From Methanoregula sp. UBA471 (GTDB lineage: Archaea > Halobacteriota > Methanomicrobia > Methanomicrobiales > Methanospirillaceae): a stretch of 40,000 nucleotides of DNA. Both the position numbers and the translations under genes were made by a program. Location: the NCBI GenBank assembly GCA_002495065.1, contig DADT01000031.1:80996-120995 (forward strand), read 5' to 3'. The notes below the pieces were generated by a model, which worked only from the letters and a program-made list of their open reading frames with translations, was not told where the DNA came from and did not search any database. This document shows, piece after piece, positions 17,902 through 38,153 of the stretch (position 1 is its first letter; every line of letters begins with the position of its first letter).

Positions 17902-20900
17902 ATGAAATCCCTTCCTCATGGTCTCTATGAACAACTTATCAATACGAATCTCGAAGAAAAACTTCGAGGACAAAGTATCAGCAAGGATACCCTGAAAAAT
18001 TTTGATTCACCAGTTCTTCTCTCTCAATATCTCGGCCCGATCCTGAAAAGGTCTCTCGAATTCTTGGACGGTTCTGAGGGGTCACCATCAGAACAGGTAG
18101 CGTGCTGCAACGAGATTATCCGTCTTCTCGCAAAAATCACGAAGGAAGAGTGTCTTGATCAATGCGTAATTTCTGAAGGCGGAGAAATTCTCCTCTCCAT
18201 CGGTGACGAAAGACTCTCCTCATTCCGGCCCATTACGCCCCTCGCCCAAAGCAGTTTATTTACCGGTTCTTCTCTCGAACCCAGTTTGATTCAAGAGCTG
18301 AAGGCAGAGATTCTGTCCGCCGACCGGATCGACATCCTCGTATCATTCATCAAATGGAGCGGGATCCGGCTTCTTATGGATGAACTCAGGCAGTTTTGTG
18401 ACCAGGGCCGGCTACGTGTCATTACGACCGCTTACACCGGCGCGACAGACATTCGGGCTATCGATTTCCTTTCGTCGCTGCCGAATACCGAAGTCCGGAT
18501 ATCCTATGATACCGCATACACCCGGCTCCATGCAAAAGCCTACTATTTTGAGCGGGACTCCGGGTTTTCCACTGCGTATGTCGGATCATCGAACATCTCG
18601 AATCCCGCGATTACGTCGGGTCTTGAGTGGAATGTAAAACTAACAGAAAAAGACTCCAAACCGTTGATCCGGAAGATCCAGGCTTCGTTTGAGAGTTACT
18701 GGAATGACAGGGAATTTTTGGAATACACAGAGAAAGACAGGGCAACGTTCGAGGAGGCGGTCCGGAAGGAACGAAGAGGAACTGCTGATGAAAGTTCCCC
18801 ATACTTTTTTGACATAACCCCGTTTTCTTTCCAGAAGGAGATCCTCGAACGCTTGCTGGCGGAGCGGACGATACACAACCATTACAAGAATCTCGTTGTT
18901 GCGGCTACGGGGACTGGCAAGACCGTTATATCCTCGTTTGATTTCCGCCGGTTCCGCGAGACGAATCCCCGGTCCCGACTTCTCTTTGTCGCACATCGCG
19001 AAGAGATCCTGAAGCAGAGTCTCTATACCTTCCGGGGAATCCTTAAGGACCAAAACTTCGGTGATATTGCTGTAGCCGGTAAAATTCCTGCGCAGACCGA
19101 TCATGTCTTCATGTCAATCCAGACCTTCAACAGTTCCGGGTTTTCAAAAAGGACTCCTCCCGATTTTTACGATTTCATCATCATCGATGAATTCCATCAT
19201 GCGGCAGCGGCCTCGTACCAGCATCTCCTATCCTATTACCGGCCGAATGTCCTGCTCGGGCTGACGGCCACACCAGAGCGAATGGACAATCTCGACATCC
19301 TGGGATATTTCGATGGCCGGATTGCTGCGGAGATCCGGCTCGCGGAGGCGATTAACCGGAACCTTCTCGCACCCTTCCATTACTTCGGTATCACGGATAC
19401 GGTGAACCTTGATGACGTTGAGTGGTCCCGGGGAAAATACAACCAGGGAATCCTGTCCCTTCGCTATACTGGGAATGATACCCGGGCCGGCCTTATCGCA
19501 GAATCCCTCCGGAAGTATGTCACCGACATCGATGAGATCATGGGCCTCGGGTTCTGCGTGAGTATCGAGCATGCGAACTACATGGCCGGCATCTTCACCC
19601 GGATGGGTATTCCCTCGGTCTCTTTGAGCTCCGAGAGTCCCGATGAAGAGCGGCGAACGGTCCAGCGGCGTCTGCGGGAGAAGGTGATCCGCTTCATCTT
19701 TGTCGTCGATCTGTACAACGAAGGGGTGGACATCCCGGAGATCAACACGATCCTCTTCTTGCGTCCTACTGAGAGCATGACCGTCTTTCTCCAGCAGTTG
19801 GGCCGTGGGCTCCGGCTCTGTCCTGGGAAGGAATGTCTCACGGTGCTGGATTTTGTCGGGCGGCAGAACGCGAACTATCATTTTGATGCAAAATACCGAG
19901 CCTTGGTGGGCGATGCTCATGTACCAATTACCCAGCAGGTCCGAACAAACACCTTCTCTCTCCCCCGGGGTTGTTTCATCACGCTAGAGAAAGTTGCGCA
20001 GCAGACCGTGCTCTCTCACATTGAACAATCGCTTACGAAGCGGAAGGGCCTCGTGCAAAAGATTGCTCGGTTTGAAGTGGAGTCCGGGAAAACGCTGGAG
20101 ATCGGGAATTTTCTTTCGTACTACGATCTTTCGCCCGGGGAAATTTATGGACGGTCGAGTTTCAGGCATCTGTGTGCGAAAGCAGGGTTGTGTCATCCTC
20201 CTTCTCCTGATGAGGAGGACCTTCTCGTTACTGCTGCTCGAAGGTTACTCCCGCTCACTTCCGTCTCTCTTATCCGGTTCATCCGCCGGTTCCTCGCTCA
20301 TCCGGAGGTTTCTTTCACGGATCCTTCACGGGATTCTTTTCTTTCAATGCTCTGGTATTCGTTCCATACCGAGCCGCTTATCACGGATATTGTCTCTGGT
20401 ATGCAACCGTTCCTTTCTCATGAGTGGATGGTTCAGGAGATAGACGGGCTGCTTGGGTACTTGGAGGACAAGACGGAAGTCCTCGAAGGTTCGTTGAATG
20501 TCGGTTTTCCGACCGGACTTTCTCTTCATTGCACCTATTCCCGTGACCAAATCTTTGCGGGTCTCGGCCACTGGACGCTGTCCCGGATGAGCGTTGCCGG
20601 CAAACGTGAGGGAGTGTTGTTTCTCCGGGAGAGGAATCTGGATGTGTTCTTCATCACTCTCAATAAATCCGAGAAGCACTTCTCGCCCTCTACGATGTAC
20701 AACGATTACGCGATCAGCGAGCGGCTCTTTCACTGGCAGTCCCAGAGCACGACATCGGCATCGTCCCCGACCGGGCAGCGGTATGTTAGCGGCTCCAAGG
20801 TTTTGCTGTTTGTCCGGGAGTTTAATAAAATTGGGAATATTTCACAGCCGTTTGTATGTTTAGGGACTGCTCGGTATGTGAGTCATGAGGGTAGCAAGCC

Positions 20901-20973
20901 GATGAGTATTGTGTGGCGGTTGGATGTGGAGATTCCGGCCTGGTTTATGAAGAAGGCGGGGAAGGGGATTTGA
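17902..20973 (+). CDS. PLD-family nuclease / SF2 (DEAH-type) helicase / DUF3427 fusion protein
   Basis: PLD HKD motif HAKAYYF...GSSNIS. Helicase motifs AATGTGKT, DEFHH, TATPER and QQLGRGLR. The C-terminal FFITLNKSEKHFSPSTMYNDYAISERLFHWQSQ is typical of DUF3427. ATG 17902 (MKSLPHGLYEQLIN) is preferred over the track start at 17836. Confidence 0.85.
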   Translation: MKSLPHGLYEQLINTNLEEKLRGQSISKDTLKNFDSPVLLSQYLGPILKRSLEFLDGSEGSPSEQVACCNEIIRLLAKITKEECLDQCVISEGGEILLSIGDERLSSFRPITPLAQSSLFTGSSLEPSLIQELKAEILSADRIDILVSFIKWSGIRLLMDELRQFCDQGRLRVITTAYTGATDIRAIDFLSSLPNTEVRISYDTAYTRLHAKAYYFERDSGFSTAYVGSSNISNPAITSGLEWNVKLTEKDSKPLIRKIQASFESYWNDREFLEYTEKDRATFEEAVRKERRGTADESSPYFFDITPFSFQKEILERLLAERTIHNHYKNLVVAATGTGKTVISSFDFRRFRETNPRSRLLFVAHREEILKQSLYTFRGILKDQNFGDIAVAGKIPAQTDHVFMSIQTFNSSGFSKRTPPDFYDFIIIDEFHHAAAASYQHLLSYYRPNVLLGLTATPERMDNLDILGYFDGRIAAEIRLAEAINRNLLAPFHYFGITDTVNLDDVEWSRGKYNQGILSLRYTGNDTRAGLIAESLRKYVTDIDEIMGLGFCVSIEHANYMAGIFTRMGIPSVSLSSESPDEERRTVQRRLREKVIRFIFVVDLYNEGVDIPEINTILFLRPTESMTVFLQQLGRGLRLCPGKECLTVLDFVGRQNANYHFDAKYRALVGDAHVPITQQVRTNTFSLPRGCFITLEKVAQQTVLSHIEQSLTKRKGLVQKIARFEVESGKTLEIGNFLSYYDLSPGEIYGRSSFRHLCAKAGLCHPPSPDEEDLLVTAARRLLPLTSVSLIRFIRRFLAHPEVSFTDPSRDSFLSMLWYSFHTEPLITDIVSGMQPFLSHEWMVQEIDGLLGYLEDKTEVLEGSLNVGFPTGLSLHCTYSRDQIFAGLGHWTLSRMSVAGKREGVLFLRERNLDVFFITLNKSEKHFSPSTMYNDYAISERLFHWQSQSTTSASSPTGQRYVSGSKVLLFVREFNKIGNISQPFVCLGTARYVSHEGSKPMSIVWRLDVEIPAWFMKKAGKGI

Positions 20974-21030
20974 GGATTTGACGCTCATCGGGGCTCTGCC
21001 CCTTGCGCCGCGTGGGTTTTCCCCCGGGTG
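20965..21030 (+). repeat. dispersed ~55-bp GC-rich repeat, copy D
   Basis: GGGGATTTGAGGATTTGACGCTCATCGGGGCTCTGCCCCTTGCGCCGCGTGGGTTTTCCCCCGGG. It overlaps the stop codon of the helicase gene and ends where the AT-rich island begins. Confidence 0.7.
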
Positions 21031-21053
21031 TAAGCCTCTTCTACTAGGTGTAG

Positions 21054-21830
21054 TTAGAATTTATTTAATTTTTTAATTTTCTCTCTTTCGTATAATTGGC
21101 TACCATCAGATATTAATTCGAAAAGGATATTAATGGCATAGCGGTTTTCGAAGCTTGTTTTTATTTGTGAGACATGGTTTGCGCCTTCACCAGAAATTAA
21201 AAGGGATGGTGCAAAATGGTTCCCTTTTTTCTTTCTTTTATTTTTTCGAAGAAAGTCAGGTTTTAACACATGAACGATTCCAATAAAGCTTCCAATTAGT
21301 TCTGGAAAAGGACTATAATGTTTAGCTTCTGCGAAGGTAATCAAATTCTCATTTGCGATAAAGTAAAATTTTTGTTTTTGATTTTGATAGAAGGATAAAT
21401 TTTGATCTGAAGAGATCTCAGACTGGGTCTGGTCCTCAAAAAAGTGGGAAATTACGATATCAGGAGTAAAAAAAATATTATTATCTGACTTCGATTGAAC
21501 TCGAACATTTTGCCTTATTGAGCAAATAACGGTAAATTTTTTTCCATTTTCTTGATAATCTTTTCTGGCAAGAAAAAAAGAGAAATTATTTGGATTTCCG
21601 GCTGGACTTAACTGATATACAAAATTGCCATTTCCTGAATCTGGATTTATCATGGTTATCTCGAAATCTTGATTTTGGTAAAATCGAACAGCATTATTAT
21701 AACAATTTATTTCGAAATATGTTGCAATCCGACGTACCTGATTATTGAGAACCTGCCCGAAATCTAGTAAATACTGATTGATGTCAACCATGAAATCTGT
21801 TGCTTCCCTAAACGGTGATTTCTCGGTCAT
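21054..21830 (-). CDS. hypothetical protein, candidate PD-(D/E)XK endonuclease
   Basis: FFTPDIVISHF is followed by ITFAEAKHY, a PD...ExK arrangement with longer than usual spacing. The gene has an ATGA overlap with the upstream 135-aa gene. Confidence 0.4.
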   Translation of the reverse strand: MTEKSPFREATDFMVDINQYLLDFGQVLNNQVRRIATYFEINCYNNAVRFYQNQDFEITMINPDSGNGNFVYQLSPAGNPNNFSFFLARKDYQENGKKFTVICSIRQNVRVQSKSDNNIFFTPDIVISHFFEDQTQSEISSDQNLSFYQNQKQKFYFIANENLITFAEAKHYSPFPELIGSFIGIVHVLKPDFLRKNKRKKKGNHFAPSLLISGEGANHVSQIKTSFENRYAINILFELISDGSQLYEREKIKKLNKF

Positions 21831-23151: not shown

Positions 23152-24075
23152 TCATGATTTATCCTCTATTGATAGTTTTTGCTTTTCTGGTATTAAATCG
23201 CCGAGATCGAATATCTGAATCAACACTAAACCTTCGATTAAGTTGGAATCCGAAAGAGTCTTCACTGGCATCAAACTATTTTCATCGATTTTACTATCCA
23301 AATATGATTTTGAATAAGTCCTAAAATTTATCCCTGTGCGCCAGCTCTTTGGTATTTGTCTTCGGACAAAAATCGCAGCACCAAAGACCGGGCAACGCCA
23401 TTTTGCTGATGCTCCTGCAAAGCCTTTCCTGACAAAATCGACAACTCCCTTCGGACCAATCTCGTTATTCGGAACGAAGTAATGAACATGACTCAAGATT
23501 ACATCCGCTCCTGGGTTCACAAGATTCCACTGTTGTGGTCCATAGGTATCGTAACATATTGCAGGATAGAATCGAACACCGTTTAAGGAAAAAATTCTGG
23601 GTTTTCCGAAATATCCGTGTAAATAATCCGGAGAGAGATGAACCCGCTCTCGCTCTGTTTTGGTTAATACGTGAAACTTTCGACATGTTGCAATAATGCC
23701 GGCCTTATCAACAGCTATTGCAAGCTGGTCGACATCATATCCTTCCTCATCCATTGATCCATCGATCCCAAGACAGACAACAATATGAGCTGGAATTTTT
23801 TTCAAATTTCTTTTGATTTTTCCCTCGATGAATGGGAATAAAAAATCTGCTGGTTCTCTTCCATTGTGAAACCAACCGCCAGGAAACAGGATCACACCAT
23901 CACCTTGAGATTCCGATGAGATCTTGGAAATTATACGAAGAAGAGCCGCCATCCGGTCTTTAATCTGTGTTGCATTTTTTTGCGGACTACTATCGGGAAA
24001 TTTATCGTTAACGGTCTGTAAGGTAACGGTTGCGATCCACAGTTTTTTCTGAAATTCTTGTCGTTCTTTAATCAT
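23152..24075 (-). CDS. carbon-nitrogen hydrolase (nitrilase superfamily)-like protein, divergent
   Basis: The block order matches the C-N hydrolase layout: ...GVILFPGGWF... (the usual FPE Glu is Gly here), CRKFHVL (Lys block) and FYPAICYDTYGPQ (Cys block). The start is taken at Met 24075 to avoid a 62-nt overlap with queC; the track ORF extends to 24162. Confidence 0.45.
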   Translation of the reverse strand: MIKERQEFQKKLWIATVTLQTVNDKFPDSSPQKNATQIKDRMAALLRIISKISSESQGDGVILFPGGWFHNGREPADFLFPFIEGKIKRNLKKIPAHIVVCLGIDGSMDEEGYDVDQLAIAVDKAGIIATCRKFHVLTKTERERVHLSPDYLHGYFGKPRIFSLNGVRFYPAICYDTYGPQQWNLVNPGADVILSHVHYFVPNNEIGPKGVVDFVRKGFAGASAKWRCPVFGAAIFVRRQIPKSWRTGINFRTYSKSYLDSKIDENSLMPVKTLSDSNLIEGLVLIQIFDLGDLIPEKQKLSIEDKS

Positions 24076-24100
24076 GAAATGAAGCGAGTTATCGGAAAGA

Positions 24101-24793
24101 TCACTGATACTGTATGGGATCAACAGCCCCTGCTTCGCTGAATGCTGCCAATCGCTCATCACATGAGCCGCATTTTCCGCACGAGAGTTTTCCGCCTTTA
24201 TAGCAGGTCCACGTCATGGAGTAATCCACTCCTAACAAAATTCCTCGTTTCACGATATCGGCTTTTGTCCAATACAGATAAGGGACCTGAAGGATAACAT
24301 CGTTCCAGTCGCAGAGATGAAATGCCGTGCTCATCGCGCTAACAAACGCCGACCGGCAATCCGGATAAATGGTATGATCCCCCGCATGAGCTGCATAAAA
24401 GATTTCATTTGCTCCGATCCCGATGGCGTAGGAGGCTGCAAGACTCAGAAAAACCATATTACGGTTCGGAACTACTGTTTGTTTCATCGAGTCTTCTGCA
24501 TAATTTCCTTCTGGGACTTCCCATTGATCTCTGGTAAGGCAGGAGGGAGCCAGGTCGTTAAGGACCGATATATCCACGATTTTGTGGGGGATATGTAATT
24601 TTTTACAAATTTTCTTTGCACAGGTAATTTCGTTCTTATGCTTCTGGTTGTAGTCAAACGTGATTGCATGGACTTCGTACTTCTGGCTAATCAGATCATA
24701 TAGGAGTGTTGTGCTATCCATTCCACCGGAGAGAATAAGCACCGCTTTTATCGGTTTTTTTTCATTCATTTTTGGACTCATTTGCGATATCAT
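24101..24793 (-). CDS. queC: 7-cyano-7-deazaguanine (preQ0) synthase QueC
   Basis: PP-loop LILSGGMDS and C-terminal zinc cluster C...CGKCGSCDER at a typical length. Alternative starts at 24781 or 24769 would reduce the overlap with the upstream wHTH gene. Confidence 0.9.
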   Translation of the reverse strand: MISQMSPKMNEKKPIKAVLILSGGMDSTTLLYDLISQKYEVHAITFDYNQKHKNEITCAKKICKKLHIPHKIVDISVLNDLAPSCLTRDQWEVPEGNYAEDSMKQTVVPNRNMVFLSLAASYAIGIGANEIFYAAHAGDHTIYPDCRSAFVSAMSTAFHLCDWNDVILQVPYLYWTKADIVKRGILLGVDYSMTWTCYKGGKLSCGKCGSCDERLAAFSEAGAVDPIQYQ

Positions 24794-25031
24794 TCATGAT
24801 ATCTTCAAAATTCACTATATTTATCCGATAGAATTTTTTTGTACCATTCAATGGATCTTGACGTTTTGAGATATATCCGGATTTTCCAAGTCTTGATAAA
24901 ATTTGTCCCGTGTATCTGTCAGTATGATTTAAGTGTTTTACCGCATTTTGAAATTCGAATTCCTCGTAATTAAATTTTGAAAATAATTTTGAAAGATCTC
25001 TTAACAGGAATTTTTGAATGAAAGCGGCCAT
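24762..25031 (-). CDS. small winged-helix DNA-binding protein (putative regulator)
   Basis: 89 aa. YTGQILSRLGKSGYISKRQDPLNGTKKFYRI resembles a recognition helix plus wing. It is the first gene of the leftward queC operon. Confidence 0.45.
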   Translation of the reverse strand: MAAFIQKFLLRDLSKLFSKFNYEEFEFQNAVKHLNHTDRYTGQILSRLGKSGYISKRQDPLNGTKKFYRINIVNFEDIMNDIANESKNE

Positions 25032-25121
25032 ATTCCTTCAGAGCAAGTTTTATTCGAAAAATACTTATAGTTATGAGTAGTCAAATCATCTATTAGTCTA
25101 ATTATTTGTTAGAGTTTTGTC
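25032..25121. promoter_or_regulatory. divergent promoter region between the wHTH-queC operon and the TGT-like operon
   Basis: 90-bp AT-rich spacer between divergently oriented start codons. Individual TATA/BRE elements were not resolved. Confidence 0.35.
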
Positions 25122-26153
25122 ATGCTGTCTACATTGAAAACAATCGAAACACCTCATGGAAATATAGAGACTCCTTGTTTTTTCCCGGTATTCCATATTA
25201 ATAAAAGAGGTTCAGGATCCTGCCCGAAATACTGGAATGAAATTCCTGAACAGAAATCTATGCTGCTGAATGCATATGCGATAAAAAAATCCGAAAAGTT
25301 TAAACGAATTCTTTCGGGTGGCCTTGAAAATTATCTTCATTTCAAGGGAATTTTTTTTGTTGATAGCGGGGGACTACAAAGTCGGCTCTATAATATTCAG
25401 ATGGACCCTATTGAGATGCTCAGAATCCAGGAGAAAATAGGGGCAGATATTGCGGCCACATTAGATTTGCCTGTTCTTGTTAACGACAATATTTCTGCTT
25501 TCAATCACGCTGAACAGATTAAAACTACTGTCCGAAATGCAGTAACTGCATTGGAAAACCGTGAGCGCGAGGACATGCGCTTGTACGCTGTCATTCATGG
25601 TAATGATATCAAAGTCATGATCAATACAATCGACTATCTGAAAAAAAAAGGAGATTTTGATGGATATGCAATTGGGGGATTGATCTTCAAGCGATCAGAT
25701 TTTCGGACTTTGATAGATCTGATTATCGCTCTTCGAAAAAGAGCAGGTGAAAAACCACTCCATGTTTTTGGACTGGGGGGACCACTCATGATCCCCTTAT
25801 TGACCTATCTCGGTGTCGATTCTTTTGATTCGTCTTCTTATCTTTCCGCAGGTTCAAACCGTGTATATTTTGCCCCGGAATATGGTTCCTTCGAATTCCA
25901 GGAAATAAAACCTCTGCAGGTGCTTCCATGTGTTTGTCCGGTATGCAGTAAGAACACATTTGAAGAAATCCGTTCCCAAAGAAGGTTGATTGGTATGCAT
26001 AATTTGTGGATGATTGCGTATGAGTTACGGAAATTGAAGATGCACATTCAGGAAAATGATCTGGAACCTTATCTCGATTATAGATTCATGAATAACCCTC
26101 TCATTAAAGTTGCTTTCAAATATGCAAAAGGAAGAGTCAGGGGATTTGTATGA
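25122..26153 (+). CDS. TGT-family guanine transglycosylase, catalytic domain only (DpdA-like candidate DNA-guanine transglycosylase)
   Basis: HGNIETPCFFPV, the catalytic-Asp block FFVDSGGLQ, AIGGL, FGLGGP, VDSFDSSSY, and the zinc site CVCPVCS...HNLW. At 343 aa there is no C-terminal PUA or C1/C2 tRNA-binding extension. Confidence 0.75.
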   Translation: MLSTLKTIETPHGNIETPCFFPVFHINKRGSGSCPKYWNEIPEQKSMLLNAYAIKKSEKFKRILSGGLENYLHFKGIFFVDSGGLQSRLYNIQMDPIEMLRIQEKIGADIAATLDLPVLVNDNISAFNHAEQIKTTVRNAVTALENREREDMRLYAVIHGNDIKVMINTIDYLKKKGDFDGYAIGGLIFKRSDFRTLIDLIIALRKRAGEKPLHVFGLGGPLMIPLLTYLGVDSFDSSSYLSAGSNRVYFAPEYGSFEFQEIKPLQVLPCVCPVCSKNTFEEIRSQRRLIGMHNLWMIAYELRKLKMHIQENDLEPYLDYRFMNNPLIKVAFKYAKGRVRGFV

Positions 26154-26992
26154 GACTGACGATGCGCCCGGTCTCGCTCAGTCGTGTGGTTGAAACTGCA
26201 TTCTTTGCAGAGAAAACAAAAAAATTCACCAACCAGGAACTCGCCGGATTTTTGAAATCATCAGAAAGAAGGGCACGGGAAGTATCTGAAGAGACTGTCA
26301 ATATTGGATTGTTAAAAAAAGAAGAGACAACTTACCTGCCTACAGAACGATGCGCCGTTTTTCTTGAAAATATTCGAAAAAATAATTGGAAGGGCATTCA
26401 TGAACAGATGCTGGAGTATTCCTTTTACCAATCGTTTTATACAAATCTTCCGTCGATTGAACCGGCAACACCTGAAGAGATTCTCAAATCCCTATCATCC
26501 TCAACTATTCCCTTCAATGAGGCTTCCCGCCAGGTTCTGTGTGACTGGGGTGAACGAATCGGATCTCTCCAACGAAATATCTTTACGAACCAATATTTTA
26601 CGATAGCTGATTCCGAAATTATTCTTGCACCTGCATTTCTTGAAACCTATCAATTACTAAATGTCAAAACCGGATTGTCCCTCCGCCAGAGATACGTTGA
26701 GATACCTAGAATCCGGGAATACGTTTGTCAGAATTTGCGAATCTCACGGGAGATTTTTGATTTACGCTTTCTTGAGTTATGTATGAAAAATATTGGTAAA
26801 ATTGAGCTTGCCGGAGCTCCGGTGACTACGCATGCAAAGAAGTCTGCCAAAAAAGTAAAAAGTGTGCACTTCCTCGAACTACCTGACACAATAACGATGA
26901 AATTGTCATCAAATCAGTTTCTCAATGGCCTGACAGTTGGAAAAAAATCTTATTATTTTGTTGCATATCATGGCGGCGAACTTAATGACTGA
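26150..26992 (+). CDS. hypothetical protein (possible N-terminal wHTH)
   Basis: 280-aa ORF with an ATGA overlap to the TGT-like gene and an 8-nt overlap with the downstream ATPase gene. Confidence 0.55.
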   Translation: MRLTMRPVSLSRVVETAFFAEKTKKFTNQELAGFLKSSERRAREVSEETVNIGLLKKEETTYLPTERCAVFLENIRKNNWKGIHEQMLEYSFYQSFYTNLPSIEPATPEEILKSLSSSTIPFNEASRQVLCDWGERIGSLQRNIFTNQYFTIADSEIILAPAFLETYQLLNVKTGLSLRQRYVEIPRIREYVCQNLRISREIFDLRFLELCMKNIGKIELAGAPVTTHAKKSAKKVKSVHFLELPDTITMKLSSNQFLNGLTVGKKSYYFVAYHGGELND

Positions 26993-28166
26993 ATTTACCC
27001 TGACTCTGAAAGGAAAAGACTATGCTAAGTACGGCCTTCTGGGAAACCCTTTCCCATTCTCCGGCGTTCCGGATGAACATCCGAATGTCTATATCGGACA
27101 GGATGATGTTCTTGAGAAGATAAACTCTGTGTTATCGTCGACAGTTCTGTCATCACAATCGAATCATCTCATTGTAACCGGATCCTATGGTAATGGAAAA
27201 AGTCATACTCTGAAATTTATCAAATCACATATCAGAGACCAGTTTTCAGAAAAATCCGACACCAGGATTTGTGTAGGATATGTATCCCAACCCGGAGAGA
27301 CGTTTCTTGAGATTTATACCAAATTTATGTACGATTTGGGATATTCCTTTGTTAAGAATCTGTCTCAGACATATCTCGGTCATATTGCATTTCAACTATC
27401 AAAGGATGGACTGATTGAAGAAAAAATCCGAAAAGGGCAGGGTTGGAAAGCGATCGAAAAAGGGGATGTTCTTATTTCGGATATCGTTCCAAAAGCCATC
27501 CAGCGGTTGAATGACGGCATAAAATTCGTTGATTACACGAGGGCATTCATTGCATTATCGTATGAAGAAAATTCTATCTATTCCTGGGAGTGGCTCTGTG
27601 GGGAAGGTGTTGAATATAATAAACGACAGGAACTTTCTCTCGGAAAAAATATCAATGACATCAACTCAGTCCGAGCATTCGGTGCAATGAAATATGTGCT
27701 TAAAGAACTGGGTTTTTCTTCTCTCGTTTTGCTTATCGACGAATTTGAGTTTATTGAAACACTTCCACAATTAAAGAAACAAAAATTGCTCAATTCCCTG
27801 CGTCACATCATCGATCTCAATGGGGATAGGCTGTCAATTATTATTGCGTGTGCTCCAGAGGTCTGGCAAACAATTGTTGCTGAATACCATGCCTTTTCAG
27901 AGCGCATCGCAAAAGAGGCCAATCTGAAACCCATGGATCAGGAAAAGATCCGGTTGCTGTTGGTGTCATATCTGAACAATAAACGTACTAATCAGAGTGA
28001 TTCCCTGTTACCATTTACCGATGATTCAATTGAAAAAATATTTTTCCATTCACAGGGAAATACACGACGTATAATTTCCTTATGTAGTCAGGCCCTTGAT
28101 GCGTCCCTGGATTTCAATAAACCTCAAATCGATCAGGAGATTCTGGATTCGGTCATCGCCGGATAA
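26985..28166 (+). CDS. P-loop ATPase, ORC/Cdc6- or BrxC-like AAA
   Basis: N-terminal GLLGNPFPF, Walker A GSYGNGKSHT and Walker B VLLIDEFEF. The start is taken at ATG 26985; ATG 26970 and the track start 26937 are alternatives. Confidence 0.7.
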   Translation: MTEFTLTLKGKDYAKYGLLGNPFPFSGVPDEHPNVYIGQDDVLEKINSVLSSTVLSSQSNHLIVTGSYGNGKSHTLKFIKSHIRDQFSEKSDTRICVGYVSQPGETFLEIYTKFMYDLGYSFVKNLSQTYLGHIAFQLSKDGLIEEKIRKGQGWKAIEKGDVLISDIVPKAIQRLNDGIKFVDYTRAFIALSYEENSIYSWEWLCGEGVEYNKRQELSLGKNINDINSVRAFGAMKYVLKELGFSSLVLLIDEFEFIETLPQLKKQKLLNSLRHIIDLNGDRLSIIIACAPEVWQTIVAEYHAFSERIAKEANLKPMDQEKIRLLLVSYLNNKRTNQSDSLLPFTDDSIEKIFFHSQGNTRRIISLCSQALDASLDFNKPQIDQEILDSVIAG

Positions 28167-28243
28167 ATACGATTAGAATGGTTTGATAAAATCTAAAACT
28201 TTATTTCAATAATTTATTATTCTGAATCAGCGGAGAACTCCCC

Positions 28244-28645
28244 ATGCGAGCGAAATTATATAAAATTGTCACATTCGATGCCAGTCACCGGTTACTGTAT
28301 TATGTCGGAAAATGCAATCAGCTGCACGGGCATCACTGGAAAGTGGAAGTCTGGGTTGAGGGAAATGTTGATGAAAAGACTCAGATTGTCGTTGATTACA
28401 ACACAATAAAACAAGTCATTGAGCGGTTCGATCATATGGTAATTCTGAATAAGAAAGATCCTCTTGTAAGTTGTCTTGAAAAATATCAATCTGTGATTCA
28501 GGTAAATGGAGACCCTACGAGTGAATTGCTCGCATATCATATCAAAAATATTCTCGAAAATGATAGTGATTTCAAACGGACTGATGCGAAGGTAACGCGG
28601 ATAAAAGTATGGGAGTCACCGACCAGCTGTGCGGAGATTTCTTAA
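28244..28645 (+). CDS. queD: 6-carboxy-5,6,7,8-tetrahydropterin synthase QueD
   Basis: FDASHRL and CNQLHGHHWKVEV (catalytic Cys plus His-x-His zinc ligands), at 133 aa. Confidence 0.85.
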   Translation: MRAKLYKIVTFDASHRLLYYVGKCNQLHGHHWKVEVWVEGNVDEKTQIVVDYNTIKQVIERFDHMVILNKKDPLVSCLEKYQSVIQVNGDPTSELLAYHIKNILENDSDFKRTDAKVTRIKVWESPTSCAEIS

Positions 28646-28661: not shown

Positions 28662-29492
28662 TTAAGAGAGAAGATATTTTTTTAATGTAATTTTTTCAAA
28701 TTTTAAAGGAATATCAATTGAGATGTAATTGGTTTCAAATTTTCCTCGAGAAAGGATCAGATACTTTCCCTCAATTAATTTTTTAATCAATGCTTTTATC
28801 CTTTCTATCGATAAAGTCCCATATGAAAATCCTGCATCAATTTCAGAATACAAATTATTCTCTTTAATTGAGTCACTGATAGAAATTATTGACTCAATAA
28901 ACTGTCCGAATTCATCCATACTCAGTAATTGAAGAGCTTGGTCCTCAAATATCGGATCAAACATTATTTTATTTCTTGATGTCGTTGTGAAATTTAACCA
29001 ATTAATCCAAGATTTCAATCTCCCAGATGCAGTTTTATTTAGTCCTTCCTTCTTCGAAAAATCTTGAATGATCTCATTCAACTCGAATGTATTCGATCGG
29101 ATTTCTTCAATTACCTTGCGAAATATCATGCTGTGTTTGTAGAGATTTTTAAAAAAATAAAATGAGACAAATGAATCGTATTCGCCATTTGCGCAATGAT
29201 GGGCAATTTGTTTTCCTTGTTTTGTAAGCATATTTTTATCAAGAAACTCAAGTTTTTTTAATAATTGAATCTGTGATGAAAAGTGATCATTTTTTACTGG
29301 TGAGAAAGAATCTCCTTCGTGTTTCCGTTTCCTTTCATTATACTCAAACAAAATTCCTTCATCAAAGTTTGGAAATTTTTTTTCAAATCGTTCACATTCA
29401 GAAATAATTTCCAATATTTCACAACATGTACTCATAATTGTTGTCGAAATTTGGTGTTTTGTAATTTCATTACGAGCAGTATCTTTAGACAT
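28662..29492 (-). CDS. hypothetical protein, partner of the 983-aa ATPase
   Basis: 276-aa ORF whose ATG directly abuts the stop codon of the upstream 983-aa gene (TGAATG). Confidence 0.55.
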   Translation of the reverse strand: MSKDTARNEITKHQISTTIMSTCCEILEIISECERFEKKFPNFDEGILFEYNERKRKHEGDSFSPVKNDHFSSQIQLLKKLEFLDKNMLTKQGKQIAHHCANGEYDSFVSFYFFKNLYKHSMIFRKVIEEIRSNTFELNEIIQDFSKKEGLNKTASGRLKSWINWLNFTTTSRNKIMFDPIFEDQALQLLSMDEFGQFIESIISISDSIKENNLYSEIDAGFSYGTLSIERIKALIKKLIEGKYLILSRGKFETNYISIDIPLKFEKITLKKYLLS

Positions 29493-32444
29493 TCAAACAA
29501 CCTTATATGTGGCGACTAAAACCTTATTCTCCATTAAAAATTTTACAAAATCACTTGCTTTTTTATCGTCAATATTGAATTCTTTTTGAAGTAGTTCGAG
29601 AGTGTATTCTTTATTCGGTTTAAAAAGTGATTTGAATTTGGGTCCTAGTTGTCCAAATTCTGTATCGATATTAATTGAAAACACAGATGAAAAATTTCCC
29701 TTTCTATAATTTTTATTTGCCTCATCAATTTTTGCCTCCATCGTTTTGATAATTTTCCGCATTGATTCCAGTTGGTCATCTTTAAGGTATAATTCACACT
29801 TTTGAACGAGGATTTTTCCGTCACTATTTTTATTGGTTATTTCTCTTATGTGATTCTCGGCTTTGATATCCAAATCCGTGTAGAGACTTCGTAAATTCTT
29901 GAATTTTTGATCAACCTTTTCAATATCTGTGCTTTCTTGGATAATTTTCCAATCATCTGAAAGTGTCTTATTGCTTAAATCCAACATCTCATTTTTAATT
30001 GCCCGTTCAAGTTCATCGATATTGAAAGATTTGATTTCACCTTCAAGGATTTTTGCTCTTGTTGAGAATTGGTTATATATTGAAATTGCTTCATCAAAAC
30101 TCGGGCGAATTTTTTCTGCATATTCCAACATATTTACCTGTTCAAAAATTTTTTCAGTATCTGTTGACAGGGAGTTTAATTCTGATTCTAATCGAGAATT
30201 TTTAAATTGAATTTTCTCTAAAACTTTGATGGCGTTTTTTATTGTCGAAGTCCTCTCATGATAAATATGGGATATCTCTTTGAGTTGATTGATATATTCT
30301 GTCGATGTGAAAAGAACACTTTTCATTCGGTGTTCATGATAGTATAACTCAACAAAATTGACGATCGAATTTTCTGTAGGTTTAAAAGTGTTAATACTAT
30401 TTTTTATTAACTCTAACGAACGGATAAATTGAGTAGTTTTTTGCTCAAATTTTTCTGATAATAGTTCACCGATTTGATCACGACATTCTTTCAATGATTC
30501 TGTAATCCCTTTTCTCTCTTTTTCAATCTCTTTGATCAAGGAGGACTTTCTTTCATCAAATTGAATTAATTTATACCCATCCGTCATTCCAATTTTTTTC
30601 AGTAATTTTACTGCTGAATCGATTGGCTTAACTTCAGAATTAAAATAAAAAACCTCTTGAGACAATTTTTCAGGAATAAAATAATCCGCAGAGAGAATCT
30701 GGTTATACCAACTCGGTGCGGTTATTGTTGCTCCGTCGAAAAATTCACTAAGAGATAAAAATTCAACATTCGCTTTTTTCATATCGTTTTTTGATACATA
30801 ATAAATATCCATTATAAAATTTTCAAATTCGTCGTCAGATCGTAATTTTGATCCGAATAATGATGAGACATAATGTTGTTTTCGATGTTTCTCAAAAAAA
30901 TGTATGATTTTATCATTCATTTCCATTACTTGATTGAATATTTGATCCTTGGCTGTAGTAATTTCTCCAGAAGATATCAACATTGGATTATAAAGTGCAA
31001 ATCTTAGAGCCATTTCTGGGGTATCTGGAAGTAATATGAAAGCATCATCATCAGATTGTTTTTGATTTTTCTTTTCAGAATTGGAGATAAAGAGCGTGAA
31101 AATATCCGAACTAATTTTTGGATCTCCAACCATTTTTATAGAGATGGGAATCCTTGCTTTCTCATTAGGAATGGTGAAAAATATTTTTTTCAATCTTGAA
31201 TCAGCAACATATCTGTCCGAACAATCATGTAACATCTCACCAATATTTTTGAGGGCAAAATGAAGTTGTGATTCTTTATCTTCCAAAAATCCTTCTGCGA
31301 TAAGACCTTCAGCCTTATCCCGACCCATTTTTGATTTAAATTCTACATCATCTAATATAGCAGAAAATTTTTTTGTTTTTCCCTCAGGTGGCTTCAGTAG
31401 AGTAACTTTGGTTGATCCCGCCAACCATTCAGCAATTCTCTTTTTATCGATGGATCCACCACCGATTTGATTAACAGAATAAAGGATATCGTGGCAATTT
31501 TTAATGAGAATCCTCCAAGAAAACAATCCTTTTTCATCAACAGATTTTTTTGTAAGAAACATAATTCCGTCTTGTGTGAAAGGATAATTCTCATCAACAT
31601 CATTTGAGATTCTTGCATTTTTCAAGCGGAATTGAACGAATTCTATTGCTTCTTTCTCGGTGAATGGTCTCAGAGGAATTACTCTTTCCAATCGTGTTTT
31701 TAAGGCATTATTTATTCCACCGATGTGTTGGAAACTCGCCGCAGTCATATACAAAAATAATGCAACAGGGAATTTTTGATTAGTTTTCCCTTCTTGAATG
31801 TAACCAATCAAATCACGAAGATATTTTAAATCCCTCTCGATTTGAGGACGAGTCATGGCAGTCATACCCCACCTGTCCTCCACTTCATCAAGATGGATTA
31901 CTACGCAATCACACCCCCCAATTTTTATTAGAGCGTTGATATAACCAAACCAAAGACTCATCAATCGGGTAGCTTCACGAATATCATTTTCGCCCGATTT
32001 CTCGAATTTAATTCCCTTGAATGTTAGATCCAATGCTTCATTTATACAGGATTCGACTTCTGATTGATCTAGATCTCCTGTAGTTATCGCCAATTTATCG
32101 ATGATTAATTTTAAAATAAAGAATGGATCGTCAAATGAACCATACTGCATCTTCAATATGATATGTTTGGTTTTTGGATGGTGGATTGAACTTTCCATTA
32201 ATTTGTATGCAAGAGCTGTTTTTCCTGATGATGGTTCACCTTCAATGACTGCAGCAATCAGTTTGCCCCCTCTTCGAGCCATATTGATTACGTCATTGCA
32301 GTCGTGTAACTCCTTCGTCCGAAATTGTGCGTTAATTGTTGAAATTGCAGGCTCATAATCCCCTTGACTTTCAAAAGGGATGAATTTTAAGTTAATATTT
32401 TCAAAATTATCAATAATATCTGCGGTTTTCCGTCTTTGTGCCAT
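29493..32444 (-). CDS. large P-loop ATPase with long coiled-coil-rich C-terminal region
   Basis: Walker A GEPSSGKTAL and Walker B VVIHLDEVED in the first ~330 aa (ORC/BrxC-like AAA). The remaining ~650 aa are Lys/Glu/Ile-rich and look helical. Confidence 0.7.
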   Translation of the reverse strand: MAQRRKTADIIDNFENINLKFIPFESQGDYEPAISTINAQFRTKELHDCNDVINMARRGGKLIAAVIEGEPSSGKTALAYKLMESSIHHPKTKHIILKMQYGSFDDPFFILKLIIDKLAITTGDLDQSEVESCINEALDLTFKGIKFEKSGENDIREATRLMSLWFGYINALIKIGGCDCVVIHLDEVEDRWGMTAMTRPQIERDLKYLRDLIGYIQEGKTNQKFPVALFLYMTAASFQHIGGINNALKTRLERVIPLRPFTEKEAIEFVQFRLKNARISNDVDENYPFTQDGIMFLTKKSVDEKGLFSWRILIKNCHDILYSVNQIGGGSIDKKRIAEWLAGSTKVTLLKPPEGKTKKFSAILDDVEFKSKMGRDKAEGLIAEGFLEDKESQLHFALKNIGEMLHDCSDRYVADSRLKKIFFTIPNEKARIPISIKMVGDPKISSDIFTLFISNSEKKNQKQSDDDAFILLPDTPEMALRFALYNPMLISSGEITTAKDQIFNQVMEMNDKIIHFFEKHRKQHYVSSLFGSKLRSDDEFENFIMDIYYVSKNDMKKANVEFLSLSEFFDGATITAPSWYNQILSADYFIPEKLSQEVFYFNSEVKPIDSAVKLLKKIGMTDGYKLIQFDERKSSLIKEIEKERKGITESLKECRDQIGELLSEKFEQKTTQFIRSLELIKNSINTFKPTENSIVNFVELYYHEHRMKSVLFTSTEYINQLKEISHIYHERTSTIKNAIKVLEKIQFKNSRLESELNSLSTDTEKIFEQVNMLEYAEKIRPSFDEAISIYNQFSTRAKILEGEIKSFNIDELERAIKNEMLDLSNKTLSDDWKIIQESTDIEKVDQKFKNLRSLYTDLDIKAENHIREITNKNSDGKILVQKCELYLKDDQLESMRKIIKTMEAKIDEANKNYRKGNFSSVFSINIDTEFGQLGPKFKSLFKPNKEYTLELLQKEFNIDDKKASDFVKFLMENKVLVATYKVV

Positions 32445-32513
32445 ATCCTCGCCTTAGGTCTACCATTGATAACCATTATTTATTAATCTAATGAGTTGAG
32501 TTTATCATCTTTC
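32445..32513. promoter_or_regulatory. short divergent promoter region between the 983-aa ATPase operon and the NurA-HerA operon
   Basis: AT-rich spacer of about 50-70 bp (contains TTATTTATTAAT) between divergent starts. Confidence 0.3.
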
Positions 32514-33899
32514 ATGGTAGATTCTATGTCTGTGAGCTCGTATCTACCGACAAATGCGTATGATACCACACGATTGGGAGTAATTATTCGAGACTCTGAA
32601 GTTTTATTCTCTGAAAGTCGAGTAGAATGTGAGAGAACGATACGAGGAATAGATAATACGTTATCTGCGAATGCATCTTTAATCGATCCCGATTCAAATC
32701 CTTTAGAAAAAAGTAGAACTATAAAATTTGTTGCAATTGATGGAACTCGAGATATTCTTGAAGGCCAGTCACATGCACGATTATTTGCAGGTGCCTACGC
32801 AGTTTGCGGTTCATTCGAAGAAAAGGTGGATATAACTGAAATTGAAAGAGGATGTGCATTCAGCATCGTTTCTTTACCCTATAAAATTCTGACTTCTGGA
32901 AACGATTATGAAACTGAAAATGCTGGGACAATTGCAAATCTTCTCATGCTGCTCTCGGAGATTTTTGTAGCCCTGGATTATTCTGAAAAAAACGTTGATA
33001 TGATCCTCCTTGATCGTCCATTATGCGGAACCCTTGCCCATACTCGAACTAAGATGGCTGATAACAGTATCCTAAAAGAAATGGGTGCACGGAATATCAC
33101 CTCTAAAATAAAAATCGATGATCTAATGCCGATTTTTGACACATTGTGTAAAAGACTTTTTATTGACTCTCATCCCGAACCCCTTAAAATTCAAGACCGC
33201 TATCTTTCGAGCGACGATCTTATGTATCTTTGTCGTATAGGGATGGAGAAATTATTTCAGACCTGCCGAGAAAGAAATATCGACCTGATCGGAATTACAA
33301 AAACCACAAATGATTGCTCCTTTTTGCGAATGTTAATCACTATCCACTCAATTGAAAATTTATCAACGAAGAAAATTCGAAAAATTTTCTCGCAGATTGA
33401 TGATTGCCGAATGCTCGACATTTGGATAGAGCCCTATAAAAAAATAGTTTGTACACGAGAATATGATACAGCCTTAATGACCATAATGGTTGATGAATCA
33501 AAAACTGTCAAAGATATCGGTGGGGGAGGTGTAGCCCCCCGAAAAACCATTGTTCGTTCGTACATGAGTTTTGGACTAAAGAATAAAGGAGGATATGTCT
33601 TTGCTGTTGAACGACTTGTTTTAGTTGATGAAAAACCGCCCGTTCTTGTCCTCCCCGATCACTCTGAAATATTCCTTTTTACGATAGAGGGAAATACAAA
33701 ACAAAATACCATTTTTCACATTCTCAAAGGCATGTGTACAGGAGCATTTCCTGAAGCACTTTACTATCCATTGCCTCTAGCGTTATCTCATCGTTTTGCA
33801 AAATCAAATTTCGATTATGTTCGACCTCGATTGAAAGCATCGAGTTATGTGTTTGGAAGAGAGTATGGTTATAACGATGTAAAAAGGGGATTTACATGA
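32514..33899 (+). CDS. NurA-domain nuclease-like protein
   Basis: KFVAIDGTRD (NurA catalytic Asp block), MILLDRPLCG and DLIGITKTTN are collinear with NurA motifs. ATG 32514 is preferred over TTG 32496. The stop overlaps the herA-like start (ATGA). Confidence 0.6.
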   Translation: MVDSMSVSSYLPTNAYDTTRLGVIIRDSEVLFSESRVECERTIRGIDNTLSANASLIDPDSNPLEKSRTIKFVAIDGTRDILEGQSHARLFAGAYAVCGSFEEKVDITEIERGCAFSIVSLPYKILTSGNDYETENAGTIANLLMLLSEIFVALDYSEKNVDMILLDRPLCGTLAHTRTKMADNSILKEMGARNITSKIKIDDLMPIFDTLCKRLFIDSHPEPLKIQDRYLSSDDLMYLCRIGMEKLFQTCRERNIDLIGITKTTNDCSFLRMLITIHSIENLSTKKIRKIFSQIDDCRMLDIWIEPYKKIVCTREYDTALMTIMVDESKTVKDIGGGGVAPRKTIVRSYMSFGLKNKGGYVFAVERLVLVDEKPPVLVLPDHSEIFLFTIEGNTKQNTIFHILKGMCTGAFPEALYYPLPLALSHRFAKSNFDYVRPRLKASSYVFGREYGYNDVKRGFT

Positions 33900-35716
33900 A
33901 TGAAGAGATTATTGAGCGATTTAACATAGAAGGTCGTGTAATCAAAATTTCTGGAAGTGGAGCTGCGACCGTTATCGAAATTTTTTTCCCGTATACTAAA
34001 GAAGCAATTACAAACATATCTGAAGGAGCTTTTTTAGCGTTGGAAAATGTCAGGTCAAAGGCTGATAAGAAAATATTCTCGCTAGTAAATATTGTGAGTT
34101 ACGACATCTTTCATTCGGGTTTAACTGACTTGGATCCAACGAAAGTCCCATTTCCCGCTACTGTTGTGGAAGTTGCCTCTCGTGCTTTCAAAGAACTTGT
34201 AGAAGGAAATCCTGAAAAAATTAGTCTGGCTGGAATCAAAGTCAGATGCATTCTATCGGGATATGAAATTGTTGATGACCAAAAAAGAACGGTTAATCCA
34301 AGCACAGAAAAGCCCCTTATTGGATCCGAGGTATTTCATCCAACTGCATTCATTTTAAATAAAATTTTTAACCGTGGTCTTAACATTGAAAGTGGGGCTA
34401 TTGAAATTGGAGATTATCACCATGGTTTGGATAAGATTAGAATCTTATTAGAACCGAACGATTTGATTCACCATCATATTGGTGTATTTGCATCTACAGG
34501 AGCTGGGAAAAGTTTCCTCATTTCAAATCTTTTAAAGGAAACATTATCCAAAGGAAAGAGGGCCATTATTTTTGATACTGTTCCTGAGTTTCCCGCGTTG
34601 TTATTCGATGTAATTTATGATTATGTTATGAATCGTAACAATGATTATAAAATTGCATTAATTTTCAGAGATAAGCAAGATATTCTCGCCGTAAGTAGTG
34701 GTGAAGAGTTACTAAAACGGATAAACATTCCAGAACCGTTGCGTGAAAAATATCATGACAAAATGTTGAAAGTTTTTGAACAATTACGATGGCAGCGAGA
34801 ACCTATCCCAAAAATAATGCTCCCCTTACTAACATCCTCTGAAATTATCAATATGGTCAATTATTCCATGTCGATAAAACGTCTCCCCCAGGCAGAAACC
34901 GTTGCTCAGACTATTGAATATTTTATTGAAGACCGATATCCCGACGCAATTTTTGCTGGAAATGTAAAGGATCTTAAAAATTTTGTCTCAGATTACAAAA
35001 ATATCAATGACATCTTGAATTTCATCCAAGGCGAACGGGATACAATAGGAGATGATAAGAATATTACCTACAAATTTTACGAATCGACATATCAATTACT
35101 TCTTCATAAATCCGACCAACGAAATCTCATCTTAACAGATTATATCAAAGAAATCAACAATCAACATCTCGACAAAAACCAGGTTATCGAGCCACGGGAT
35201 CTCGTTCGACCCCTGCTTGATGGAGATATGAAATTACATATTGTGATTAGTGACATCAGTGATGATACAAAACATTTGATGTCCAATGCAATTTCTAACG
35301 CTTTTAATTTACAAAAAGGTAAAGCCAATAATAGTCTGATGTTCGTCGTCGATGAAGCTCATAATTTTGCGTCTATCGATCCCTCACCCAGCTCGAAGGC
35401 CATAGAGAAATTGGCACGAGAAGGACGAAAATATAAACTCGGTCTGTGTCTTGCTTCTCAACGTTGTACATATATGAATACAAGTGTTATGGCCCAACTG
35501 AAAACATATTTTATCAGCAACCTCCGAATGAAAACCGATAGAGACCGGATAAGACAGATTTTTGATATTAATTCAGAGATTCTTGATAGTTCAGTCAATC
35601 TTGGTGGGAAAGATTGGTATCTTGTGTCGGAAAAGGCTACTGGATTGAAGAATACACCGATTAAAATTCGGGTGTTTGACGTGAATGAAAGAATAGAGTC
35701 GATAATTAATTCATGA
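33896..35716 (+). CDS. HerA/DUF87-family ATPase
   Basis: N-terminal barrel-like EGRVIKISG, Walker A HIGVFASTGAGKSF, Walker B LMFVVDEAHNF, and GRKYKLGLCLASQR. Confidence 0.8.
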   Translation: MNEEIIERFNIEGRVIKISGSGAATVIEIFFPYTKEAITNISEGAFLALENVRSKADKKIFSLVNIVSYDIFHSGLTDLDPTKVPFPATVVEVASRAFKELVEGNPEKISLAGIKVRCILSGYEIVDDQKRTVNPSTEKPLIGSEVFHPTAFILNKIFNRGLNIESGAIEIGDYHHGLDKIRILLEPNDLIHHHIGVFASTGAGKSFLISNLLKETLSKGKRAIIFDTVPEFPALLFDVIYDYVMNRNNDYKIALIFRDKQDILAVSSGEELLKRINIPEPLREKYHDKMLKVFEQLRWQREPIPKIMLPLLTSSEIINMVNYSMSIKRLPQAETVAQTIEYFIEDRYPDAIFAGNVKDLKNFVSDYKNINDILNFIQGERDTIGDDKNITYKFYESTYQLLLHKSDQRNLILTDYIKEINNQHLDKNQVIEPRDLVRPLLDGDMKLHIVISDISDDTKHLMSNAISNAFNLQKGKANNSLMFVVDEAHNFASIDPSPSSKAIEKLAREGRKYKLGLCLASQRCTYMNTSVMAQLKTYFISNLRMKTDRDRIRQIFDINSEILDSSVNLGGKDWYLVSEKATGLKNTPIKIRVFDVNERIESIINS

Positions 35717-38138: not shown

Positions 38139-38153
38139 CCGGAGAGATTGATT

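Follow-up and report, generated by a model that had tools for sequence, protein, structure and literature searches.

The window analysed here is a stretch of 40,000 nucleotides from Methanoregula sp. UBA471 (contig DADT01000031.1, positions 80,996 to 120,995 of the forward strand), and all coordinates are those of the window unless stated otherwise. It carries a cassette of three genes, in which a 343-amino-acid (aa) transglycosylase of the TGT family is joined to a winged-helix protein and an ATPase, together with genes for the synthesis of 7-cyano-7-deazaguanine (preQ0) and a second transglycosylase gene, dpdA. An original prediction, made from the sequence alone, had described queC, the 343-aa transglycosylase and queD as a gene set. 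All three are present, with all the motifs described, and queC and queD do flank the transglycosylase gene. What the prediction omitted were the two genes between the transglycosylase gene and queD, and the true DpdA whose gene starts at 39434. The core features are the following:

24101-24793, minus strand: queC, preQ0 synthase, 230 aa (Pfam QueC, E 4e-70)
25122-26153, plus strand: founding gene of the cassette, a 343-aa transglycosylase that resembles archaeal tRNA-guanine transglycosylase (arcTGT) and consists of the catalytic domain only (Pfam TGT, E 1.2e-39)
26150-26992, plus strand: 280-aa protein of a new family, modelled as three tandem winged-helix domains and a small C-terminal beta domain (AlphaFold2 and Foldseek)
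26985-28166, plus strand: 393-aa BrxD/ORC-Cdc6-like AAA+ ATPase (Pfam BrxC_BrxD, 52.3 bits against a cutoff of 22.2; PADLOC BrxD, E 1e-10)
28244-28645, plus strand: queD, 6-carboxytetrahydropterin synthase of the PTPS family, 133 aa (Pfam PTPS, E 1.2e-28, 99.9 bits, above the threshold)
39434-40000, plus strand: dpdA-DUF6884, N-terminal 189 codons; the full gene (571 aa) continues past the end of the window and was read at 15539-17254 of contig L090

The best match of the 343-aa protein, by sequence as well as by fold, is arcTGT (TgtA). It aligns with residues 25-347 of the 582-aa enzyme of Pyrococcus horikoshii (PDB 1IQ8; 133 bits). The equivalents of D95, D130 and D249 are kept as D81, D115 and D236, and the zinc ligands C279, C281, C284 and H307 correspond to C270, C272, C275 and H293. 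The catalytic aspartate pair, the substrate aspartate and the zinc ligands, all shared with arcTGT, were invariant in a 21-sequence family alignment. An AlphaFold2 model of the protein (predicted local distance difference test, pLDDT, 90) gave 1J2B and 1IQ8 as its best Foldseek matches, with a template modelling (TM) score of 0.85 and a root-mean-square deviation of 2.7-2.8 Å. The differences from arcTGT are also clear. The protein ends at about the equivalent of residue 347 of 1IQ8 and has no counterparts of the C1, C2 and PUA domains, F99 and Q169 are replaced by L85 and H159, and the gene shares an operon with those for the ATPase and the winged-helix protein on an island or a plasmid. Against the TgtA model TIGR00432 it scored 198.2 bits over model positions 14-342 of 441, and the cutoff of 350 was not reached. 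The alignment with 1IQ8 bears out the earlier description of a catalytic-only TGT with intact active and zinc sites and without PUA or C1/C2 domains.

The further proposal, that this protein is a DpdA-type enzyme, did not hold. The NCBIfam DpdA model NF041059 matched residues 131-243 only, at 34.3 bits (cutoff 200), and the PADLOC DpdA model gave 35.3 bits. The solved DpdA structure, 7UI4, was not among the 51 PDB matches of the protein at E <= 0.001, and its identity to the island's own DpdA is 22%. A HMMER search of 1.84 billion representative sequences returned short relatives of about 345 aa at 158-368 bits and full-length arcTGTs of 490-720 aa at 153 bits or less. The original prediction had asked for a phylogeny, and a neighbour-joining tree of 64 catalytic domains (Poisson distances, 100 bootstraps, viral DpdA1-3 left out) recovered the full-length arcTGTs including 1IQ8 (99% bootstrap), the bacterial TGTs (100%) and the DpdA enzymes (100%) as clades. 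The 343-aa protein clustered neither with canonical arcTGT nor with DpdA and lay outside all three, in a separate short clade of cassette-linked proteins (85%). By sequence comparison, the protein is therefore placed in a distinct short clade that is nearest to arcTGT yet outside canonical arcTGT.

Two other identities were considered for this protein. DpdA4 corresponds to Pfam DUF6610 (PMC10516641), and this identity was rejected, as Pfam returned only TGT. A viral origin was likewise rejected: a tblastn search of 50,697 phage records found no more than 30% identity. A scan of IMG/VR gave six weak matches, the best of them 36% identical over part of the protein only.

The 280-aa protein encoded next to the transglycosylase had no match in Pfam, NCBIfam, PADLOC or the PDB sequences. 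Its AlphaFold model (pLDDT 87.7, predicted TM score 0.83) found the tandem winged-helix domains of SelB (1lva, E 9e-4) as the first Foldseek neighbour, followed by RPC62 and MarR. We had considered it as a PUA-like partner of the transglycosylase, and this was rejected, since the model matches winged-helix proteins only. Grouping with split arcTGT catalytic subunits, whose PUA part is encoded elsewhere, had been named as an outcome that would speak against the prediction; no PUA part is encoded beside the 343-aa protein. The start of the 280-aa gene overlaps the stop of the transglycosylase gene by 4 nucleotides (ATGA), and the ATPase gene, whose start was taken from the called genes and candidate start codons, overlaps the end of the 280-aa gene by 8 nucleotides. 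The transglycosylase is translationally coupled to the winged-helix and ATPase genes. Against the NCBIfam BrxD model NF033438, the ATPase scored 37.5 bits, and the cutoff of 350 was not reached.

Scanning one genome per GTDB species led to 58 loci with a relative of the 343-aa protein at 37% identity or more; individual loci are designated by L numbers below. These loci belong to Methanoregulaceae, Methanosarcina, Bathyarchaeia and some 45 species of haloarchaea, a sporadic distribution over about 56 species in total, with two copies of the transglycosylase in Salinibaculum rarum. All but one of the 58 loci (57) encode the transglycosylase, the 280-aa-type protein and the ATPase together. A Nitrososphaeria locus and two further relatives of only 32-35% identity have all three genes as well, arranged as ATPase, transglycosylase, 280-aa-type protein. 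The three genes form an obligate cassette.

A DpdA-DUF6884 gene was found within 10 kb of the cassette in 50/58 loci. On complete PLSDB plasmids, all haloarchaeal, the 343-aa-type transglycosylase and DpdA co-occur in nine cases out of nine, for example on pBNX82-4 of Haloferax alexandrinus. In haloarchaea dpdA lies directly upstream in the same orientation (dpdA, transglycosylase, 280-aa-type protein, ATPase), and in Bathyarchaeia directly downstream of the cassette. The accompanying helicase and nuclease genes vary. UvrD and PD-(D/E)XK proteins are encoded in the window and in the Methanoregula, Bathyarchaeia and Nitrososphaeria loci, while the Methanosarcina and haloarchaeal loci carry a DpdJ-like helicase (201 bits), a weak DpdH-like protein and a PLD protein. 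DpdA-DUF6884 with no cassette within 10 kb was found in Methanoculleus horonobensis and Methanofollis liminatans, where it stands beside a module encoding a protein of 262 aa, a 1118-aa AAA protein, a DpdJ-like helicase and a protein of 681 aa. The converse was seen in Methanosarcina Mfa9, which has the cassette and no DpdA within 10 kb; downstream lie a 260-aa protein, a 1118-aa AAA protein, a DpdJ-like helicase and a 684-aa protein. With one and the same module downstream of the Mfa9 cassette and beside DpdA in the other two, there is a hint that the cassette and DpdA can fill the same functional position.

The gene starting at 39434 is a bona fide DpdA. Its full sequence was read from the longer metagenome contig L090, which is 100% identical to the window over 16,105 bp. 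The 571-aa product matches the PADLOC DpdA model at 292 bits (model positions 1-409 of 417) and the solved DNA-guanine transglycosylase 7UI4 at E 6.5e-57 over residues 1-394. Orthologues scored 308.6 (in L010), 275.9 and 264.4 bits against the NCBIfam DpdA model (cutoff 200). The C-terminal part gave a weak match to PADLOC DpdC (25 bits) and 59 bits against PDC-M57A. In the L010 orthologue the C-terminal domain was identified as Pfam DUF6884 (60.5 bits), and several homologues have a PF03883 record; DUF6884 is distantly related to YaaA/DUF328, the family to which DpdC belongs (PMC11701544). The DpdA-DUF6884 family is larger than the set of cassette loci, with 3355 matches, and is already named DpdA by PGAP. 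No DpdB was detected by PADLOC and NCBIfam among the scanned proteins of the window, the contig and the related loci, a scan that did not include some small open reading frames (ORFs).

As for the supply of preQ0, QueC passes the NCBIfam model TIGR00364 (229 bits, cutoff 150.3), and its translation has the SGGMDS PP-loop and the C-terminal cysteine cluster. QueD falls just below the cutoff of TIGR03367 (79.6 against 89.25 bits) and has the CxxxHGHH motif as CNQLHGHH. The queC gene is syntenic with the transglycosylase gene in L009, L011, L013 and L015, at 72-74% identity. No queE, folE or yhhQ was found in the window or on the same contig out to about window coordinate 45700, in agreement with the earlier statement that neither queE nor folE lies in the window. 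Within 10 kb of the cassette, QueC is encoded in 34 and QueD in 37 of the 58 loci, and a YhhQ-type transporter in seven. De novo clustering of the proteins of these loci showed all four preQ0 genes in 12 loci, three in 16, one or two in 12 and none in 18. As related loci have anything from 0 to 4 of them, the que genes are optional additions, which fits the proposal that they are booster copies. The same prediction had assigned queC, the transglycosylase and queD to accessory DNA, and this is supported by the low G+C content, the sporadic distribution of the homologues and their frequent location on plasmids.

The remaining features of the island and its borders are listed below:

17836-20973, plus strand: type IV (modification-dependent) restriction enzyme of the PLD-helicase-DUF3427 type (PADLOC mREase_IV, 706 bits; Pfam ResIII, PLDc_2, DUF3427)
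23152-24162, minus strand: 336-aa ORF with a weak nitrilase-superfamily signal (Pfam CN_hydrolase, E 1.8e-3; PDB nitrilase 3ivz, E 0.077)
24762-25031, minus strand: small ORF of 89 aa, first gene of the leftward operon, no family match
25032-25121: AT-rich divergent intergenic region of 90 bp between the leftward operon (89-aa ORF, queC) and the rightward operon (transglycosylase cassette)
28662-32444, minus strand: 276-aa and 983-aa (P-loop) proteins, no family matches, homologues only in L009 and L013
32496-35716, plus strand: NurA-like (467 aa) and HerA-like (606 aa) pair (Pfam NurA, E 2.7e-3, and DUF87, E 3e-13; PADLOC HerA, 117 bits)
35727-39365, plus strand: UvrD-family helicase (803 aa) and PD-(D/E)XK nuclease (405 aa) (Pfam UvrD-helicase, E 2e-45, and PDDEXK_1, E 2.7e-9)

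The G+C content of the window is about 0.50 to the left of ~21 kb and drops to 0.33-0.41 from there onward. The left flank consists of ordinary genes, among them those for shikimate kinase, flavodoxins and a transporter, and an NYN-domain protein encoded there groups with Methanoregula proteins in one 90% cluster. The type IV restriction enzyme marks the left border of the low-G+C island, and L011 and L015 have copies of it, 82-90% identical, upstream of their cassettes. Directly upstream of this gene in the window is one for RNase III with a dsRNA-binding domain (17215-17805, plus strand); RNase III is unusual among archaea.

Of the genes on the leftward side, the 336-aa nitrilase-like ORF overlaps the queC stop, has homologues only in the two closest loci, L009 and L013, and is peripheral, outside the conserved core. 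As a putative nitrilase co-transcribed with the gene for the enzyme that makes the nitrile preQ0, it might alter the base before insertion. The 89-aa ORF is kept in the same position in six Methanomicrobia loci, at 42-71% identity, and its sequence pattern suggests a winged-helix regulator; kinship with an HxlR-like ORF at the equivalent position in Haloarcula was considered and rejected, as no similarity was found. A sigma-70 promoter and terminator scan showed no enrichment, the sigma-70 model not being applicable to an archaeon.

To the right of queD, the 983-aa P-loop protein is weakly similar to the BrxD-like ATPase. The block 28662-35716 is an insertion relative to the Methanoregula loci L010, L011 and L015, where UvrD, PD-(D/E)XK and DpdA come directly after the cassette, and it may represent a HerA-type defence module of its own, nested inside the island. 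The UvrD and PD-(D/E)XK proteins, encoded directly before dpdA, are a candidate restriction pair. This pair adjoins DpdA or the cassette in L010, L011, L014, L015, L017, L097, L098 and L099. On contig L090, the region past dpdA (17383-21821) encodes an HTH-ImmA/IrrE-type peptidase, a DUF3368 (PIN-like) protein, an Exo_endo_phos nuclease and a NERD-UvrD helicase. Because such genes follow dpdA there, the defence island reaches well beyond the right end of the window.

Several known systems share parts of this design, the nearest among those described being the bacterial Dpd island and the recently proposed BRC system. The bacterial Dpd system (dpdA-K of Salmonella Montevideo; PMC10164549, PMC5699537) likewise has a DpdA homologue, a DpdC-related module (here the YaaA-like DUF6884) and clustered preQ0 genes on a mobile genomic island with helicases and nucleases, and DpdJ-like and weak DpdH-like proteins are encoded in the related archaeal loci. 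However, DpdB and DpdD are missing here, a DUF6884 domain fused to DpdA replaces DpdC, and the helicase and nuclease set of the window is made up of UvrD, PD-(D/E)XK, HerA and NurA. The arcTGT-like transglycosylase, the winged-helix protein and the BrxD-like ATPase are additional, and the hosts are archaea. Viral DpdA1-DpdA4 (PMC6884629, PMC10516641) are also catalytic-only enzymes of the TGT superfamily encoded beside partial or complete preQ0 gene sets, but the 343-aa protein has no close viral relative and is not DUF6610/DpdA4; DpdA1-3 were not in the tree.

BRC (BREX-related capture) comprises PglZ, DUF6079, DUF4007, a STAND NTPase and HerA, to which GNAT and TGT may be added; it occurs in haloarchaea and Methanosarcina and has been proposed to deposit a 7-deazaguanine self mark without DpdB (PMC12839542). 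The window resembles it in having HerA, a BREX-type ATPase and a multi-domain DNA-binding protein alongside a TGT homologue. It differs in its true DpdA, and candidate BRC-type TGTs (L068-L087) are only 24-32% identical to the 343-aa protein. An identity with BRC was rejected, as Pfam scans of the island ORFs found no PglZ, DUF6079, DUF4007, STAND NTPase or GNAT, and only the HerA-like and TGT components were present. In type IV CBASS, a defence system, the TGT-family Cap10 and the QueC-like Cap9 modify a protein; Cap10 is without the zinc site and nucleic-acid surfaces, and the target is the CD-NTase (bioRxiv 10.1101/2025.04.06.647259). Here, too, QueC and TGT homologues lie in a defence locus with dedicated protein partners. 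In contrast to CBASS, the zinc site is intact, QueC is canonical, no CD-NTase is encoded in the island, and the PADLOC model for the CBASS TGT gave 21 bits. Searches of the accessible literature on archaeal Dpd, on DUF6884 and on DpdA with BrxD found no description of the cassette.

Other islands with short TGTs were observed along the way. The loci L068-L087 hold about 20 further TGT-like genes, 24-32% identical to the 343-aa protein, from haloarchaea, cyanobacteria, Poribacteria and Hadarchaeota. Some adjoin queC or queD, that of L081 lies directly beside a DpdA, and the taxa overlap those listed for BRC. The island L073 (3119-18912) of Halorubrum sp. GN11_10-6 encodes a Vut_1/YhhQ transporter, QueE, QueC, an SNF2 helicase, a 413-aa TGT-like protein, a GHKL/MORC-type ATPase, an ArcS-like TGT+DUF5591 protein, a transposase and an integrase. 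It is another design with a short TGT, an ATPase and a second TGT paralogue, possibly for archaeosine in DNA. Finally, L103 (1074-24115) on plasmid NZ_CP014001.1 of Picosynechococcus sp. PCC 73109 has an annotated dpdA (691 aa) and a second short TGT of 307 aa. The latter is about 33% identical to the 343-aa protein and sits between two DEAD/DEAH helicase genes; the plasmid also carries a UvrD-like helicase with PD-(D/E)XK and NurA with an ATP-binding protein, pairs that are found in the window as well.

On balance, we think it somewhat probable that the window contains an archaeal Dpd-type island for 7-deazaguanine DNA modification and restriction, of about 17 kb or larger, with two transglycosylases, in which the cassette would drive base exchange with ATP and the gene set first described forms the left part. 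Islands of this type exchange guanine in DNA for a 7-deazaguanine and cut back DNA that lacks the mark. The reading draws on the family assignments, the intact catalytic and zinc sites, the obligate cassette and its linkage to genes for DpdA, preQ0 synthesis, helicases and nucleases, and also on the existence of other designs, in L073 and on the L103 plasmid, that combine a short TGT, an NTPase and a second gene of the TGT superfamily. The supply of preQ0 would be boosted by QueD and QueC along with FolE and QueE of the host. The winged-helix protein would place the cassette on the nucleic acid, and the ATPase would provide the energy in the stead of DpdB, the ATPase that bacterial DpdA requires (PMC10164549). 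The 343-aa enzyme would then exchange guanine for preQ0, presumably in DNA. DpdA-DUF6884 might also insert preQ0, or turn the inserted preQ0 into the amide, or both, which would imply a division of labour between the two transglycosylases. The UvrD/PD-(D/E)XK and HerA/NurA pairs would attack unmarked DNA. The more specific proposal, that an arcTGT-derived enzyme was recruited with the winged-helix protein and the BrxD/ORC-like ATPase as a second ATP-driven, non-tRNA transglycosylase beside DpdA-DUF6884, is one that we put forward only tentatively.

Several points weigh against this interpretation. No biochemical or mass-spectrometric report of 7-deazaguanine in cellular archaeal DNA is to be found in the searchable literature, and the need for two transglycosylases in one system has no explanation. 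The 343-aa enzyme has its closest relative in an enzyme of tRNA modification, and DNA, RNA and protein substrates cannot be told apart from sequence; an arcTGT lacking the PUA domain reportedly still modifies tRNA. The ATPase passes the domain-level threshold only and not that of the BrxD equivalog, and the restriction role of the helicase and nuclease genes rests on their neighbourhood. In addition, the absence of DpdA within 10 kb at some loci may reflect the limit of the flanks, as the dpdA of the window itself lies 14.3 kb from the transglycosylase gene.

The tRNA relationship is the basis for an alternative in which the 343-aa protein is a housekeeping or split arcTGT that makes preQ0-tRNA and queC and queD are the organism's ordinary copies. 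The closeness to arcTGT in sequence (133 bits to 1IQ8, 198 bits to TIGR00432) and fold would fit this, as would the intact active site. We nevertheless regard it as very unlikely, since the protein falls outside the canonical arcTGT clade and below the TgtA cutoff, its relatives are sporadic, plasmid-borne in at least nine haloarchaea and duplicated in Salinibaculum rarum, and the gene is operonic with the ATPase and winged-helix genes in 57/58 loci, nearly always with DpdA. Its position on a low-G+C island beside restriction genes, next to a 280-aa protein that is not PUA-like, also argues against a housekeeping role. The view that the 343-aa protein is itself the island's DpdA-type DNA transglycosylase, fed by queC and queD, draws on its catalytic-only form, its place beside preQ0 genes on accessory DNA and the related loci without DpdA within 10 kb. 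It is highly improbable: the scores against the DpdA models are low, 7UI4 is matched by the 571-aa protein and not by this one, the DpdA clade excludes it with 100% bootstrap, it is not DpdA4/DUF6610, and identity to the closest viral relatives does not exceed 36%, over a part of its length only. As family membership, this view is refuted; as a statement on function, that the enzyme works like DpdA, it merges with the explanation that we prefer.

Two further alternatives concern what the cassette acts on. It could belong to the restriction side and probe or attack invader nucleic acid rather than mark self DNA, for example through a covalent intermediate or an abasic lesion at unmodified or foreign-modified guanine, guided by the winged-helix protein and the ATPase. 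In BREX-like systems, ATPases of the BrxC/BrxD type are regarded as sensing scaffolds (PMC12839542), most loci already have a separate enzyme for modification in DpdA-DUF6884, and BrxD-like paralogues recur in the adjacent helicase/HerA modules. The full base-exchange site is kept, however, including the aspartate that binds preQ0 or guanine, the haloarchaeal cassette lies in the dpdA operon next to que genes, and in Methanosarcina the cassette takes the place of DpdA, so that we consider a sensor or effector role unlikely. Attachment of 7-deazaguanine by QueC and the TGT to a partner protein, either the ATPase or the winged-helix protein, has a precedent in defence in Cap9/Cap10 of type IV CBASS (bioRxiv 10.1101/2025.04.06.647259), and the cassette does have fixed protein partners. 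Its chances appear slim, as the zinc ligands lost from Cap10 are kept in the 343-aa protein, QueC passes the canonical equivalog cutoff (229 against 150.3 bits) and scores lower with the CBASS and Qat models, many cassette loci are without QueC, and no CD-NTase is present.

DNA with 7-deazaguanines is on record for bacteria (the Dpd system) and for viruses. Archaea carry bona fide DpdA genes, already annotated automatically, in a distinctive form with a DpdC-like fusion and no DpdB. Equally distinctive is an obligate second transglycosylase that descends from the archaeosine enzyme and is coupled with a DNA-binding-like protein and an ATPase. Because several carriers are cultivable, genetically tractable haloarchaea with the system on plasmids, the predictions made here are directly testable. 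If the proposed base-exchange function is correct, a dual-transglycosylase system would place 7-deazaguanine marks on the chromosomes and plasmids of archaea, possibly two different marks or two target motifs. This would be the first deazaguanine modification of cellular archaeal DNA and a case of base exchange in duplex DNA that is independent of DpdB. The system bears on how TGT enzymes are made to act on duplex DNA and on what the ATPase does, as well as on the repeated recruitment of tRNA modification enzymes to nucleic-acid immunity.

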